This document shows positions 18,122 to 24,321 of a DNA stretch of 64,000 nt, in pieces. Every line of letters starts with the position of its first letter. The stretch's first letter is position 1. Source of the stretch: Escherichia coli (lineage in GTDB: Bacteria > Pseudomonadota > Gammaproteobacteria > Enterobacterales > Enterobacteriaceae); NCBI RefSeq assembly GCF_013122565.1, contig NZ_CP053258.1. The stretch is one strand, 5' to 3'. The position numbers and the translations under genes are program-made. The notes under the pieces were generated by a model. It did no database searches, had not been told where the DNA came from, and saw only the letters and a program-made list of their open reading frames with translations.

Positions 18122-20191
18122 ATGTCTGAGAAAACTTTTCTGGTGGAAATCGGCACTGAAGAGCTGCCACCAAAAGCACTGCGCAGCCTGGCAGAGTCCT
18201 TTGCTGCGAACTTTACTGCGGAGCTGGATAACGCCGGCCTCGCACACGGCACCGTTCAATGGTTTGCTGCTCCGCGTCGTCTGGCGCTGAAAGTAGCTAA
18301 CCTGGCGGAAGCGCAACCGGATCGTGAAATCGAAAAACGCGGCCCGGCGATTGCCCAGGCGTTCGACGCTGAAGGCAAACCGAGCAAAGCGGCAGAAGGT
18401 TGGGCGCGTGGTTGCGGTATTACCGTTGACCAGGCTGAGCGTCTGACTACCGATAAAGGCGAATGGCTGCTGTATCGCGCCCATGTGAAGGGCGAAAGCA
18501 CTGAAGCACTGCTGCCGAATATGGTTGCGACTTCGCTGGCGAAGCTGCCGATCCCGAAACTGATGCGTTGGGGCGCAAGCGACGTGCACTTCGTGCGTCC
18601 GGTGCACACCGTGACCCTGCTGCTGGGCGACAAAGTCATTCCGGCAACCATTCTGGGCATTCAGTCCGATCGCGTGATTCGCGGCCACCGCTTTATGGGC
18701 GAGCCGGAATTCACCATCGATAACGCCGATCAGTATCCGGAAATTCTGCGTGAGCGCGGGAAAGTCATCGCCGATTACGAAGAACGTAAGGCGAAGATTA
18801 AAGCCGATGCCGAAGAAGCAGCACGGAAGATTGGCGGTAACGCTGACTTAAGCGAAAGTCTGCTGGAAGAAGTGGCTTCGCTGGTGGAGTGGCCGGTTGT
18901 GCTGACCGCAAAATTCGAAGAGAAATTCCTCGCGGTGCCGTCTGAAGCGCTGGTTTACACCATGAAAGGTGACCAGAAATACTTCCCGGTGTATGCGAAC
19001 GATGGCAAACTGCTGCCGAACTTCATCTTCGTTGCCAACATCGAATCGAAAGATCCGCAGCAAATTATCTCTGGTAACGAGAAAGTCGTTCGTCCACGTC
19101 TGGCGGATGCCGAGTTCTTCTTCAATACCGACCGTAAAAAACGTCTGGAAGATAACCTGCCGCGCCTGCAAACCGTGCTGTTCCAGCAACAGCTGGGTAC
19201 GCTGCGTGACAAAACTGACCGCATCCAGGCGCTGGCTGGCTGGATTGCTGAACAGATTGGCGCTGACGTTAACCACGCAACCCGTGCGGGCCTGCTGTCT
19301 AAGTGTGACCTGATGACCAACATGGTCTTCGAGTTCACCGACACCCAAGGCGTTATGGGGATGCACTACGCGCGTCACGATGGCGAAGCGGAAGATGTCG
19401 CGGTGGCGCTGAATGAGCAGTATCAGCCGCGCTTTGCCGGTGATGACCTGCCGTCCAACCCGGTAGCTTGTGCGCTGGCGATTGCTGATAAGATGGATAC
19501 TCTGGCGGGTATCTTCGGTATCGGTCAGCATCCGAAAGGCGACAAAGACCCGTTTGCGTTGCGTCGTGCCGCACTTGGCGTACTGCGTATTATCGTTGAG
19601 AAGAACCTCAACCTTGATCTGCAAACGCTGACCGAAGAAGCAGTGCGTCTGTATGGCGATAAGCTGACTAATGCCAACGTGGTTGATGATGTTATCGACT
19701 TTATGCTCGGTCGCTTCCGCGCCTGGTATCAGGACGAAGGTTACACCGTTGATACCATCCAGGCGGTACTGGCGCGTCGTCCGACTCGTCCGGCTGATTT
19801 CGATGCCCGTATGAAAGCGGTATCGCACTTCCGTACCCTGGAAGCAGCTGCAGCACTGGCGGCGGCGAACAAACGTGTATCTAACATCCTGGCGAAATCT
19901 GACGAAGTGCTGAGCGATCGCGTGAATGCCTCTACTCTGAAAGAGCCAGAAGAAATTAAACTGGCGATGCAGGTTGTGGTGCTACGTGACAAGCTGGAGC
20001 CGTACTTTGCGGAAGGTCGTTACCAGGATGCGCTGGTCGAACTGGCAGAGCTGCGTGAGCCGGTTGATGCTTTCTTCGATAAAGTGATGGTCATGGTTGA
20101 TGACAAAGAATTGCGAATCAACCGTCTTACCATGCTGGAGAAACTGCGCGAATTATTCCTGCGCGTTGCAGATATTTCGCTGTTGCAGTAA
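18122..20191 (+). CDS. glyS: glycine--tRNA ligase beta subunit
   Basis: 689-aa ORF matching GlyS; 9 nt after glyQ. Confidence 0.95.
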
Positions 20192-20206
20192 TCGATAAGT
20201 AATGGA

Positions 20207-20241
20207 AAAACCGACATTCATTTTGGGTGTCGGTTTTTTTT
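20207..20241 (+). terminator. glyQS rho-independent terminator
   Basis: Hairpin aaccgacattcattttgggtgtcggtt followed by an 8-T run. Confidence 0.8.
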
Positions 20242-20259
20242 AATCTTAAGGAATGAGAT

Positions 20260-20619
20260 TTGGCAAAGTTACGAAAGATAGTGGTGGCTGGTCGCACCTG
20301 GTTTTGGGTTTATCGTTACTACTATGCAGATGAGCGAGATTGTTATTTAAGGATAATAAGCGAAGATAAAAAAGCACAGTTTGTAATCTATTTCAGAACT
20401 CCTACTTACCATTACGGTTGTCACCCATTAAATGATGGCCTGCCAGCTTTATACAATAATGTAAAAATCAATATTAATTTGAATCAACCTCGCTTTGTGG
20501 CTCAGTTACTGACTTATGTGTTGGAGAATATTCTTCAAGGTACACCATCAGATGTAATCGAGTACGAGAACGGTAATGAGATGTTACAGCAGCTTGGGTA
20601 TGAGTTTGATTATAAATAA
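20260..20619 (+). CDS. hypothetical protein (orphan ORF, TTG start, no recognisable domain)
   Basis: 119-codon ORF in AT-rich DNA; taaggaa SD 6 nt before TTG at 20260; no in-frame ATG until codon 108; Tyr/Asn/Lys-rich. Confidence 0.35.
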   Translation: MAKLRKIVVAGRTWFWVYRYYYADERDCYLRIISEDKKAQFVIYFRTPTYHYGCHPLNDGLPALYNNVKININLNQPRFVAQLLTYVLENILQGTPSDVIEYENGNEMLQQLGYEFDYK

Positions 20620-20729
20620 TAAAATCCTCATGCCCCATAAATCCTGGTTAATACGATTGTGTTTAATAATCACCTGTTGAATATAATATTATTTATCTAT
20701 TCATTAAGTGAAATTTTTTTTCGGAATTT

Positions 20730-20847
20730 ATCAACAAGAGTGAAATCAGAATTTACGCTAGAATAGCTGCGGGTGCTTGAGACTGTTTGTCTCAGGTATT
20801 CACCGAAAGGCAGACAGAGAAAAGCCCCACCTGACTATAAATCAAAG
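20730..20847 (+). promoter_or_regulatory. hok-type promoter and 5' leader, truncated by IS150
   Basis: -10 tagaat at 20759-20764; leader gggtgcttgagactgtttgtctcagg resembles the 5' end of plasmid R1 hok mRNA; IS150 interrupts it at 20848. Confidence 0.45.
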
Positions 20848-20894
20848 TGTACTGCACCCATTTTGTTGGACGATGAAATGGAATAGCCCCTGAT

Positions 20895-21416
20895 ATGTCA
20901 AAGCCAAAATACCCTTTTGAAAAGCGCCTTGAAGTCGTGAATCACTACTTCACTACTGATGATGGTTACAGGATCATCTCGGCACGTTTTGGTGTCCCCC
21001 GAACCCAGGTCAGGACATGGGTTGCCCTCTATGAAAAACATGGAGAAAAAGGTTTAATTCCCAAACCTAAAGGTGTTAGTGCTGATCCAGAGTTGCGTAT
21101 TAAGGTCGTGAAAGCTGTGATCGAGCAGCACATGTCCCTTAATCAGGCTGCTGCTCACTTTATGCTTGCTGGTAGTGGTTCTGTAGCCAGGTGGCTGAAG
21201 GTTTATGAAGAGCGCGGAGAAGCTGGTTTACGCGCGCTCAAGATTGGCACCAAAAGAAACATTGCAATATCAGTTGATCCAGAAAAAGCGGCATCAGCAT
21301 TGGAGCTGTCAAAAGACCGACGCATTGAGGATCTTGAAAGGCAAGTTCGATTTCTTGAAACGCGGCTTGTGTATCTAAAAAAGCTGAAAGCCTTAGCTCA
21401 TCCCACGAAAAAGTGA
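20895..21416 (+). CDS. insJ: IS150 OrfA (InsJ), HTH transposase subunit
   Basis: 173-aa ORF matching IS150 InsJ; A AAA AAG slippery heptamer at 21377-21383 near its 3' end. Confidence 0.95.
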   Translation: MSKPKYPFEKRLEVVNHYFTTDDGYRIISARFGVPRTQVRTWVALYEKHGEKGLIPKPKGVSADPELRIKVVKAVIEQHMSLNQAAAHFMLAGSGSVARWLKVYEERGEAGLRALKIGTKRNIAISVDPEKAASALELSKDRRIEDLERQVRFLETRLVYLKKLKALAHPTKK

Positions 21417-22264
21417 AAGTACTCAACGAGCTAAGGCAGTTTTATCCTCTTGATGAGCTTCTCAGGGCTGCGGAGATACCGCGCAGTACGTTTTATTACC
21501 ATCTAAAGGCTCTCAGCAAGCCTGACAAGTATGCGGACGTTAAAAAGCGTATTGGTGAGATTTATCATGAGAATAGAGGCCGATACGGATACCGTAGGGT
21601 AACGCTGTCTCTTCATCGAGAAGGGAAACAGATTAACCATAAAGCTGTTCAGCGCCTGATGGGAACCCTCTCACTTAAGGCAGCGATTAAGGTCAAGCGA
21701 TACCGCTCTTACAGAGGAGAGGTAGGGCAAACCGCCCCCAATGTTCTCCAAAGAGATTTCAAGGCTACGCGGCCAAACGAGAAGTGGGTTACCGATGTTA
21801 CTGAATTTGCAGTCAATGGGCGCAAGCTGTATTTGTCTCCAGTAATAGATCTCTTCAACAATGAAGTTATTTCTTACAGCCTTTCGGAAAGACCTGTGAT
21901 GAACATGGTTGAGAATATGCTCGATCAGGCATTCAAAAAGCTTAATCCTCACGAGCATCCTGTTCTGCACTCTGACCAGGGATGGCAGTATCGTATGAGA
22001 AGATATCAAAATATCCTTAAAGAACATGGTATTAAACAAAGCATGTCCAGAAAAGGCAATTGTCTGGATAATGCTGTGGTGGAGTGTTTCTTTGGAACCT
22101 TAAAGTCGGAGTGTTTTTATCTTGATGAGTTCAGTAATATAAGCGAACTGAAGGATGCTGTTACGGAATATATTGAATACTACAACAGAAGAAGAATTAG
22201 CCTGAAATTAAAAGGTCTGACTCCAATTGAATATCGGAATCAGACCTATATGCCTCGTGTTTAA
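21413..22264 (+). CDS. insK: IS150 OrfB (InsK), DDE transposase catalytic domain
   Basis: 283-aa ORF in the -1 frame relative to insJ, overlapping by 4 nt; expressed as OrfAB fusion by -1 frameshifting. Confidence 0.95.
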
Positions 22265-22366
22265 CTGTCCAACTTTTTGGGGTCAGTACAAAGTGAGGCT
22301 GCCTCTATGCTTCAACAACATAAGGTTAGCCTCTTACTCGTTGGAAATCAACACAGGAGGCTGGGA

Positions 22367-22520
22367 ATGCCGCAGAAATACGGATTACTATTCGTTAATA
22401 GTGATTTGTTTCACGCTTTTATTTTTCACCTGGATGATAAGAGATTCACTGTGTGAATTGCATATTAAACAGGAGAGTTATGAGCTGGCGGCGTTTTTAG
22501 CCTGCAAATTGAAAGAGTAA
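22367..22520 (+). pseudogene. hokA: hokA toxin gene, apparently frameshifted
   Basis: ATG at 22367 behind aggagg SD gives MPQKY (HokA N-terminus), but the HokA body SLIVICFTLLFFTWMIRDSLCELHIKQESYELAAFLACKLKE lies in another frame; one extra T near 22391 relative to the sequence implied by the 50-aa HokA. Confidence 0.6.
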
Positions 22521-22526
22521 GAGTCT

Positions 22527-22555
22527 TCGGCGGGAAATTATTCCCGCCTTTCTTA
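22527..22555 (+). terminator. hok 3' stem-loop (fbi/terminator-like)
   Basis: Hairpin ggcgggaaattattcccgcc followed by tttctt, just after the hokA stop. Confidence 0.5.
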
Positions 22556-22679
22556 CGGTGTTGGGTATTCTCAATGCACCCTAATTTATTTCTTTAATGA
22601 ATGTTTTTTTTAAAAAATACGCATGGATTTGGCTATTAGATAAGTTTTTAATCGGGAACAGGAATGGTTCGGAGCCTTC

Positions 22680-23051
22680 ATGAATAAACTGCTTTTACTG
22701 TTGATAATGCTTTATCAACGACATCTTTCTCCTCGCAAAGGATACCGCTGTGCTTACAGTGTGTTGTACCAAACGCAGGGATGTTCGGGAGCAGTCAAAG
22801 AGATTATTCAACAGAAAGGTGTTATTGCAGGCTGGGGCGATATACGTCAGCGTTTTGCAGATTGCCGACTTGCGGCAAAGACAATCAGGCAGAAGCAACA
22901 CCTGAACGAGGTAATACGTAAAAAGAAGAATAATGATTGTGATTGTTCCGGGTGTGATGGTGCGGTCTGTCGTGATTGCGACATTCCGGTGCCGGATCTG
23001 GATTGTTCCTGGGACTGTTCTTCTCTACATTTAAAGCGGTTTTTCCAATAA
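22680..23051 (+). CDS. YidD-like (haemolytic-domain family) small protein with Cys-rich C-terminal region
   Basis: 123-aa ORF, ggag SD 4-9 nt upstream; YQRHLSP, GVIAGWG and DIPVPD motifs parallel YidD YQRLISP / GVIKGSW / DDPVPP; 7 Cys in the last 40 residues. Confidence 0.5.
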   Translation: MNKLLLLLIMLYQRHLSPRKGYRCAYSVLYQTQGCSGAVKEIIQQKGVIAGWGDIRQRFADCRLAAKTIRQKQHLNEVIRKKKNNDCDCSGCDGAVCRDCDIPVPDLDCSWDCSSLHLKRFFQ

Positions 23052-23080
23052 AAAAATCCCCGCCAAATGGCAGGGATCTT
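23049..23080 (-). terminator. cspA rho-independent terminator (probably bidirectional)
   Basis: Hairpin atccccgccaaatggcagggat flanked by A-run on + strand and T-run on - strand; matches the cspA terminator as I recall it. Confidence 0.7.
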
Positions 23081-23104
23081 AGATTCTGTGCTTTTAAGCA
23101 GAGA

Positions 23105-23317
23105 TTACAGGCTGGTTACGTTACCAGCTGCCGGGCCTTTAGCGCCGCTTTCGATGGTGAAGGACACTTTCTGACCTTCGTCCAGAGATTTGTAACCATC
23201 GTTCTGGATAGCAGAGAAGTGTACAAACACGTCTTTAGAGCCATCGTCAGGAGTGATGAAGCCGAAGCCTTTGTCAGCGTTGAACCATTTTACGATACCA
23301 GTCATTTTACCGGACAT
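23105..23317 (-). CDS. cspA: major cold-shock protein CspA
   Basis: 70-aa [73 protein letters not shown], exact CspA. Confidence 0.97.
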
Positions 23318-23476
23318 AGTGTATTACCTTTAATAATTAATTGTGCCTTTCGGCGATATGGCGTGCTTTACAGATTTTTGAAGCGTTAAAGGAAATGCAC
23401 TACGAGGGGTATCAACGATAACTCTTGAAGAGGACTTGCCTTACTACACTGCTTTAATGGTCTGTACGTCAAACCG
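23318..23476 (-). promoter_or_regulatory. cspA long 5' UTR (cold box / RNA thermosensor)
   Basis: Reverse complement begins acggtttgacgtacagacc..., the recalled 5' end of the ~159-nt cspA leader. Confidence 0.7.
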
Positions 23477-23545
23477 TTGATGTGCATTAAGCCACGCATT
23501 GGCGGGTGATGCAACAATTATTTTTCATATTTATGATTAATCGGT
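23477..23545 (-). promoter_or_regulatory. cspA promoter with AT-rich UP element
   Basis: On minus strand ttgcat (-35) and gcttaatg (-10 region) preceded by ataaatatgaaaaataattg. Confidence 0.55.
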
Positions 23546-23889: not shown

Positions 23890-24321
23890 TGAAAACTCCT
23901 CAAATCACACTGCGGGATCGTGAATTGCATCGAAGCTCATTAAGAATAGTCGGGAAAAGCAGACTCAGCGGGTGAAGTCAGGGCATGCTCTGGCTTTGAT
24001 TCGATTCAGCCTGTCATTTAGCGTGACTTATAGCCACCTAACGATCTGATAAATGCCGATATATCTCTTACCACTCCTGTTTTGTAAAGATTTCGAAAAT
24101 CTAACCTTCTGCGAAGGCGTAAATCGCTGGCTACAAAAAAGGCAACGGCAATATCATTTTTTAACAATGAAACAACAAATTAACCTTGTTTCATTTTCTC
24201 CATGATTTTACCAGGAAGATTACGTAGAAAGGGTATCCTGCAAGCCTGTCCTGGACTATCCTTGTCACGTCAGACACGCGTGTGTCGTTGTGCGCTTTTT
24301 TTGGGTGAAAGGAGTAAGAAA

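Follow-up and report, generated by a model that had tools for sequence, protein, structure and literature searches.

Is the DNA that separates glyS from cspA in this Escherichia coli chromosome one accessory islet, or a spacer in which unrelated gains and losses lie side by side? The stretch analysed here, referred to below as the window, comprises 64,000 nucleotides of contig NZ_CP053258.1 (assembly GCF_013122565.1), in which glyS, on the plus strand, has its stop at 20191 and cspA, on the minus strand, has its stop at 23105, leaving a gap of 2913 bp. The initial annotation had placed in this gap, in order from glyS, an orphan open reading frame (ORF), a hok-type promoter and leader, a full IS150, the mok/hok coding remnant and a YidD-like ORF, and had read them as a composite accessory islet built around hok. 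All five elements are present between the two genes in that order, and the interval does vary between strains, but it does not hold together as a single entity, since its blocks vary independently. The glyS-cspA spacer is, very probably, a recombining, indel-prone region of which this strain keeps every optional piece, with contents that form four independent layers and no single unit; a short spacer beside essential genes would here have gathered independent deletions, a small cassette and an insertion sequence.

The distribution of the pieces among strains carries this conclusion. In 5426 complete RefSeq E. coli genomes, the sample behind all population counts given here, the block with the YidD-like ORF (22591..23046) is present 112 times (~2%), always on the chromosome, in single copy and annotated as yidD, and the block with the orphan ORF (the ORFan block, 20193..20661, without strand) was found in none of them by blastn in distant/sensitive mode. 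The IS150 junction of the window occurs at hokA in 1131 genomes (~21%), the K-12-type junction in 1643 (~30%) and the empty, uninterrupted hokA site in 2801 (~52%), which puts IS150 occupancy of this site at ~51%; the three classes total 5575, more than the 5426 genomes, so that some are slightly double counted and these percentages are approximate. Every partial combination of the pieces occurs. Among strains without the ORFan, GF60 has IS150, an intact hokA and the YidD-like gene, LHM10-1 has the same set with hokA frameshifted as in the window, PKF11 has IS150 and an intact hokA without the YidD-like gene, E. coli 7/2 has an intact hokA and the YidD-like gene without IS150, and FDAARGOS_1256 has an intact hokA with neither; in E. 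fergusonii locus L008 the ORFan is present and the YidD-like block is missing. Because the ORFan and YidD-like blocks vary independently of each other, and IS150 is found with or without either, the interval is not one islet, and the islet reading is weakened further by how common the IS150 orientation seen here is, being shared by about one fifth of E. coli genomes.

Of the alternatives that we weighed, the one that survives best, although it is quite improbable, is the arrival of the ORFan, hok, IS150 and the YidD-like gene together, between glyS and cspA, as a single horizontally acquired islet. It would account for the adjacency of the four pieces and their relatively low GC content, and the trio of ORFan, hokA and YidD-like gene does occur in E. 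fergusonii. Moreover, between E. coli and E. fergusonii both the ORFan and the YidD-like gene show a synonymous divergence (dS) of 0.04-0.09 and are more alike than much of the flanking DNA, which hints at exchange of the interval between the species. However, the partial combinations listed above largely refute a joint arrival, and synteny with other genera extends to both hok and the YidD-like gene. Nor does the interval have the properties of a genomic island: no integrase genes, att-like repeats or flanking repeats were found around it, IS150 explains its own 1443 bp only, the blocks are separate, the YidD-like block is confined to chromosomes, and tblastn with the ORFan against plasmids and phages found nothing. 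The pieces are not accessory imports as a group, since synteny marks both hok and the YidD-like gene as ancestral; the ORFan block alone looks acquired.

The initial annotation had also described the K-12 interval as IS150 plus roughly 0.4 kb with IS150 in the opposite orientation, and had estimated that about 1 kb of the window, essentially the two small ORFs, is strain-variable. Alignment to the K-12 reference (NC_000913.3) shows an interval that differs from that of the window and measures 2066 bp, made up of IS150 (1443 bp) and 623 bp of other sequence, so that the orientation had been given correctly and the size had not. Two blocks lack a K-12 counterpart as had been proposed, 20193-20661 (469 bp, with ~64 bp in K-12 at that place) and 22591-23046 (456 bp, with ~58 bp in K-12), for a net length difference of +847 bp in the window, in fair agreement with the estimate of about 1 kb. 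The residual 58 bp, which is that of the E. coli majority, aligns loosely with sequence upstream of the YidD-like gene. The E. coli B reference, REL606, has the K-12 arrangement, with IS150 reversed, both ORFs missing, and the same junctions and deletion.

Apart from its two extra blocks, the window thus carries the hokA-sokA locus of K-12 and E. coli B at the same glyS-cspA position, with 96% DNA identity in the toxin gene and 99.1% in the insertion sequence. The insertion points of IS150 here and in K-12 are at most 2 nt apart, in the region of the Sok target and the mok Shine-Dalgarno sequence, but the window has a clean AAG duplication and keeps the mok Shine-Dalgarno sequence and start codon, whereas K-12 and B have neither. 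In K-12 the junctions read ATCAAAGTT, reverse-complemented IS150 and TACTCG, without target duplication, 39-41 bp with the mok Shine-Dalgarno sequence and start codon are deleted, and mokA and sokA are annotated in RefSeq as pseudogenes; its hokA is intact, unlike the frameshifted gene of the window. An origin of the K-12 arrangement by inversion in situ of the window type was considered and is inseparable from a reverse insertion with an adjacent deletion; the TT at the K-12 junction matches, on the opposite strand, the AA found after IS150 in the window. The IS150-interrupted hokA-sokA locus of K-12 and B was reportedly described by Pedersen and Gerdes in 1999 (Mol Microbiol 32:1090), and this part of the interval represents biology that is already known.

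The YidD-like ORF (22680..23051, plus strand, 123 residues, with a GGAG Shine-Dalgarno sequence 6 nt upstream) is the piece for which an old residence can best be argued. By hidden Markov model comparison it matches the NCBIfam equivalog TIGR00278 with 75.4 bits (cutoff 40) and PF01809 with 25.2 bits (E=1.4e-5), the YidD domain covering residues 3-69 and being followed by a basic linker and a Cys/Asp-rich tail. The N-terminal 65 residues retain the YQRxxSP...C...CS...C pattern with its three conserved cysteines, and the tail, of the form CDCSGCDG..C..C...DC..DC, keeps its general character throughout the subfamily. Canonical YidD is a protein of ~85 residues encoded in an rnpA-yidD-yidC operon, whereas the window protein is encoded in the hokA-cspA gap, is longer and carries 7 inserted residues between its first two cysteines, which assigns it to a paralogous subfamily of 123-140 residues. 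Homologues of 124-140 residues with 50-60% identity were found in Klebsiella, Pluralibacter and Superficieibacter, and in K. aerogenes, K. spallanzanii and Superficieibacter the long paralog is again found on the downstream side of glyS, in convergent orientation to cspA. On one K. spallanzanii contig the gene directly after glyS is hok, and the K. aerogenes and Superficieibacter loci have the long paralog without a called hok gene. Between Escherichia and Klebsiella the ratio of nonsynonymous to synonymous substitution rates (dN/dS) of the YidD-like gene is 0.09-0.21, and the paralog is under purifying selection.

Given the synteny in other genera and this dN/dS, the YidD-like gene and hokA can be regarded as old residents of the spacer, and if the long YidD paralog is ancestral, most E. 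coli carry a deletion allele. The first and ancestral layer would accordingly be the type I hokA/sokA locus together with the long Cys-rich YidD paralog, the common E. coli form being an old deletion allele; here as elsewhere in the interval, the direction of each gain or loss is one that we infer. What the protein does can be suggested by analogy: YidD is reported to improve the YidC/Sec-dependent insertion of inner-membrane proteins (Yu et al. 2011, as cited in PMC8082313), and for the paralog our guess would be a helper protein that associates with the membrane and binds metal through its tail. The AlphaFold2 model had a mean predicted local distance difference test score (pLDDT) of 61.6, with a helical N-terminal domain and a tail below 50, and was too poor for a fold search. 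A search of the available literature on YidD paralogs returned no paper describing the long subfamily. Long YidD paralogs with a Cys/Asp-rich tail, conserved beside cspA in several enterobacterial genera, appear to form a distinct and unstudied subfamily, of which E. coli keeps an annotated but likewise unstudied member in the small fraction of genomes noted above.

At the other end of the interval, the ORFan block has the marks of a later arrival. It begins with a terminator that we call type A (20206..20243, plus strand, AAAAACCGACA...TGTCGGTTTTT followed by a T run), with a stem that is an inverted repeat of 11 nt with 100% complementarity. Compared with loci L004, L014 and L017, this terminator is unlike the GCCTGCC..GGCAGGC type that follows glyS in the E. 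coli majority and in Klebsiella, K. aerogenes and K. spallanzanii included. The GC content of the block is 32-37% among the loci (37% here) against 55% in glyS. Since it brings its own terminator and differs in this way from glyS, the ORFan block is best taken as a derived replacement or acquisition: in some lineage of Escherichia, a low-GC cassette with its own terminator and a 119-residue ORF may have taken the place of the ancestral terminator behind glyS, and it may since have spread by homologous recombination. The ORF itself (20260..20619, plus strand) starts with TTG, 7 nt downstream of an AAGGA Shine-Dalgarno sequence, and the codon in question is ATG in locus L013.

Among the parts of the interval the 119-residue ORF alone is rare. 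A search of 5.8 billion proteins gave four close protein clusters, all from Escherichia, and in every locus recovered the ORFan lies directly after glyS. These loci are E. fergusonii L007-L012, the divergent Escherichia L013, one further E. coli draft genome (L019, where the contig breaks exactly at the edge of IS150) and the metagenome contigs L020-L022, which encode a variant of 121 residues. The order ORFan-hokA-YidD-like is intact, without an insertion sequence, in E. fergusonii L007 and L009-L012. Scans of the GTDB species-representative genomes with peptide patterns and an exact 38-mer, which speak for those representatives only, found no ORFan, the E. fergusonii representative included, and the ORFan is hence variable within E. 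fergusonii.

Several observations bear on whether the ORFan encodes a protein. The reading frame is kept in the four clusters despite a 6-nt indel, and HMMER searches of 1.84 billion representatives gave ~50 full-length relatives of ~120 residues, with the family motifs RKIxV..Y.W.Y, PLNxG, INLNQPxFxAE and G..L..LGY.F. An AlphaFold2 model built from the family alignment reached a pLDDT of 90.6 and a predicted template modelling score (pTM) of 0.84. Because the frame is kept, distant relatives exist and the model is confident, the ORF would seem to encode a real protein of an uncharacterised family of ~120 residues. Foldseek gave template modelling (TM) scores of 0.76-0.77 to one DUF4313 protein and one 'Immunity protein 50', among many unnamed matches, and structural relatives in the AlphaFold database are unnamed proteins of Firmicutes, Bacteroidota, Acinetobacter and Streptomyces; a fold search of the PDB with the same model gave no convincing match. 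The family is thus small, with a confidently predicted fold and no solved homologue.

Immunity proteins of the Imm50/DUF4313 kind are similar to the 119-residue protein in size and may weakly resemble it in predicted fold, but there is no match between them at the level of sequence profiles. Pfam, NCBIfam and PADLOC gave no match to the ORF, Pfam at E <= 0.001 had no match to any of 37 relatives either, and matches to PHROGs were non-significant (E >= 0.018). One family member is fused to DUF2262. Two large phmmer matches, P0064 and P0072, were rejected as cadherin-repeat proteins. Distant relatives sit among small miscellaneous genes, and six of them, on short metagenome contigs, gave no functional clue, no toxin domains and no hok neighbours; in all Escherichia loci the neighbours are glyS and hokA, with no cognate polymorphic toxin alongside. 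The protein may be cytoplasmic with a loosely immunity-protein-like fold and could, tentatively, be an orphan immunity protein.

The toxin-antitoxin locus in the middle of the interval has been cut in two. The Rfam model RF01794 ('sok') matches with its first half (model positions 1 to ~88) at 20771-20850 (86 bits, E=5e-19) and with its second half at ~22290-22369 (38 bits), so that a contiguous hok leader and Sok region is missing and the two halves lie 1443 bp apart with the insertion sequence between them. Long-range (tac/fbi) pairing of the 5' and 3' ends of a full-length hok mRNA would be moot in this arrangement, as the element stands between those ends. On the left are the 5' leader of the hokA mRNA and its promoter (20759..20847, plus strand), a stretch conserved across all compared loci, in which TAGAAT (20759-20764) would be the hokA -10 element, and the 3' remnant of the antisense gene sokA (20813..20847, minus strand), mapped by alignment from the 'sokA pseudogene' annotation of K-12. 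On the right, the mokA initiation region (22294..22366, plus strand), with the Sok target and the sokA 5' region, corresponds to positions ~85-157 of RF01794 and has an intact mok start, with Shine-Dalgarno sequence GAGG at 22295-22298 and an ATG at 22307 that shares the reading frame of the hokA ATG. The hokA pseudogene follows (22367..22520, plus strand, 154 nt instead of the normal 153) and carries an additional A near 22390, at about codon 8, so that the frame from its ATG encodes 29 residues (MPQKYGLLFVNSDLFH...) and no intact Hok/Gef-family toxin of ~50 residues is encoded, despite the high identity to K-12. The same allele is annotated as 'frameshifted' by the Prokaryotic Genome Annotation Pipeline (PGAP) in strain LHM10-1. 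The locus closes with the hokA 3' stem-loop and terminator identified by a terminator scan (22529..22554, hairpin 22529-22548, plus strand), which reads GGCGGGAAATTATTCCCGCC followed by a T-rich tail.

IS150 would have entered 1-2 nt ahead of the mokA Shine-Dalgarno sequence, duplicating AAG; mok/hok would thereby have been parted from the promoter and 5' leader of hokA, and sokA would have been split, after which the regulated module would no longer work, and the +1 frameshift would be a second lesion that destroys the HokA toxin itself. The separation by IS150 and the frameshift together make hokA a pseudogene, and its function has presumably been lost. In E. fergusonii L008 (PTSU01000001.1, 5360-6004) an additional A is found at the same position of hokA as in the window, and four extra nucleotides (ACAC) lie 5' of the start codon; this locus has no called Hok gene, and its hokA appears to have decayed independently.

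The insertion sequence is complete. IS150 occupies 20848..22290 on the plus strand, in the orientation of glyS and hokA, with 1443 bp between terminal inverted repeats TGTACTG...CAGTACA, and its overlapping ORFs insJ (20895-21416, 173 residues) and insK (21413-22264, 283 residues) are both intact and of K-12 length; PGAP annotates a 'programmed frameshift' for the same insertion in other genomes. It is flanked by AAG on the left (20845..20847) and on the right (22291..22293, immediately 5' of the mokA Shine-Dalgarno sequence), and the empty site in loci L004, L006 and L007 has a single AAG. A single match to its left inverted repeat shows one copy in the window.

In the paralogous hokB locus, IS150 is present in the hok orientation between ...CTATCAAC and AACCGAGGCC..., with an AAC duplication, in 605 of the complete genomes, for example E. 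coli H6 (NZ_CP010170.1, locus L031), where it spans 1118-2560 and compares with 20845-22298 of the window. This position is the exact homologue of the one in hokA, between ...AATCAAAG and AAGTGAGGCT..., 1-2 nt 5' of the mok Shine-Dalgarno sequence. A third type of junction, in the metagenome contigs L020, L021 and L022, has a forward IS150 after the same hokA sequence that borders it in K-12, 2 nt beyond the window site; across IS150, contig L021 runs into hokB and is probably a chimeric assembly through the element. The homologous position in hokB and the occupancy of about half of the hokA sites indicate that IS150 struck the same few nucleotides repeatedly in two paralogous loci, and that the hok leaders are a natural insertion hot spot at which chromosomal hok toxins are repeatedly disarmed. 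Parallel IS150 insertions in hokB/sokB are said to have arisen in the long-term evolution experiment as well, and our searches of the available literature on hokA/IS150 and hokB/IS150 found nothing specific.

It may also be asked whether the three genes work together. The antidote of Hok is an RNA, Sok, and not a protein, which speaks against a functional module in which the long YidD would control the membrane insertion of Hok, the ORFan would provide immunity at the protein level and the interval would be a decaying toxin-control system. In its favour one can cite the intact trio in several E. fergusonii genomes, the shared interval of hok and the long YidD in K. spallanzanii, the weak resemblance of the ORFan fold to Imm50/DUF4313, and the fact that Hok is a small membrane protein and that YidD is reported, as noted above, to aid the insertion of membrane proteins. 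Each gene is nevertheless found without the others, as in the K. aerogenes and Superficieibacter loci, the distant ORFan relatives have no hok neighbours and PADLOC gave no match, so a link among the three genes has no positive support beyond their adjacency, and the proposal is very unlikely to be right. We would give as little credence to its strongest form, in which the E. fergusonii trio is an ancestral module for membrane-toxin control, YidD gating the insertion of Hok and the 119-residue protein serving as a safeguard; if it were true, E. coli lineages would have taken the module apart stepwise, through deletions, the IS150 insertion and the frameshift.

Several points weigh against our preferred reading of the spacer as independent layers, in addition to the double counting of junction classes given above. 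The ancestral status of the YidD paralog is drawn from synteny in a handful of genera, the inactivation of hokA is read from the DNA sequence, and read-through from IS150 could transcribe mok/hok in those strains where hokA is intact. Both small ORFs are likewise genes predicted from sequence, with putative functions. The start codon of the ORFan lies 17 nt past the T run of the terminator (20243-20260), which leaves no room for a promoter of its own, and the ORF would depend on read-through of that terminator or on a promoter inside glyS. Its dN/dS is 0.7-1.0 among close alleles, which differ by few changes, and falls to ~0.3 only in the most divergent comparison. That both ORFs are chance open frames in AT-rich intergenic DNA and not genes is nonetheless hardly credible, since the lack of a Pfam or NCBIfam match and of an evident promoter for the ORFan, its dN/dS near 1 and the modest Pfam score of the YidD-like ORF are set against the distant full-length homologues, conserved motifs and confident model of the former and the equivalog match, the homologues in other genera and the low dN/dS of the latter.

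Returning to the independent layers, recombination would appear to shuffle alleles of the interval both inside Escherichia species and from one species to another. Ahead of the hok promoter, two alleles occur that are only ~60-65% alike, and E. fergusonii L008 shares the haplotype in which the YidD-like block is 'absent', together with linked single-nucleotide polymorphisms (SNPs); the shared haplotype and the two upstream alleles point to old alleles exchanged by recombination. The E. fergusonii locus L007 (CP079884.1) has the same order as the window, i.e. terminator, 119-residue ORF, hokA, ysaE-like ORF, YidD-like gene and cspA, with an ORFan protein that is 92% identical and a YidD-like protein that differs at 5 of 123 residues, but it has no IS150, its hokA is intact and its flanking genes are those of another species. 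A single import tract around the ORFan was sought as well and was not retained, as no breakpoint could be called and glyS shows, along its length, a mosaic of identity to L019 and LHM10-1. Many private SNPs and a mosaic identity mark the 3' half of this gene, and the best match to the 25 kb from 6000 to 30999 of the window is only 98.2% among the complete genomes; the lineage of E. coli from which the strain comes has been sampled poorly. Taken as a whole the interval is largely ordinary and matters little.

The right boundary of the interval is the cspA transcript (23050..23478, minus strand), which matches Rfam RF01766 with 481 bits and consists of a bidirectional terminator (23053-23080), the coding sequence (23105-23317) and the thermoregulator of the 5' untranslated region; the YidD paralog is convergent with cspA and shares its terminator. 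On the minus strand, overlapping the 3' end of hokA, lies a small antisense ORF that resembles ysaE (22497..22568). YsaE is in K-12 a small protein of 23 residues, also antisense to the hokA 3' end, and in the window ATT replaces its ATG start, the sole possible start being a TTG two codons upstream.

Other indels are found in the same neighbourhood. A gene for a sugar transporter of the major facilitator superfamily lies between yiaG and yiaF in E. fergusonii (L007, 7430-8800) and in Klebsiella (L014, 5473-6831), and is missing from the window (~23950-24200) and from E. coli. In the Klebsiella loci L014-L017 an ABC-F-type ATPase of 539 residues with two ABC_tran domains is encoded between glyS and the YidD-like gene, to which the K. 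spallanzanii contig L016 adds a TacA/GNAT toxin-antitoxin pair and a transposase of the IS4 family. Across genera, the glyS-cspA interval is a hot spot at which small insertions gather.

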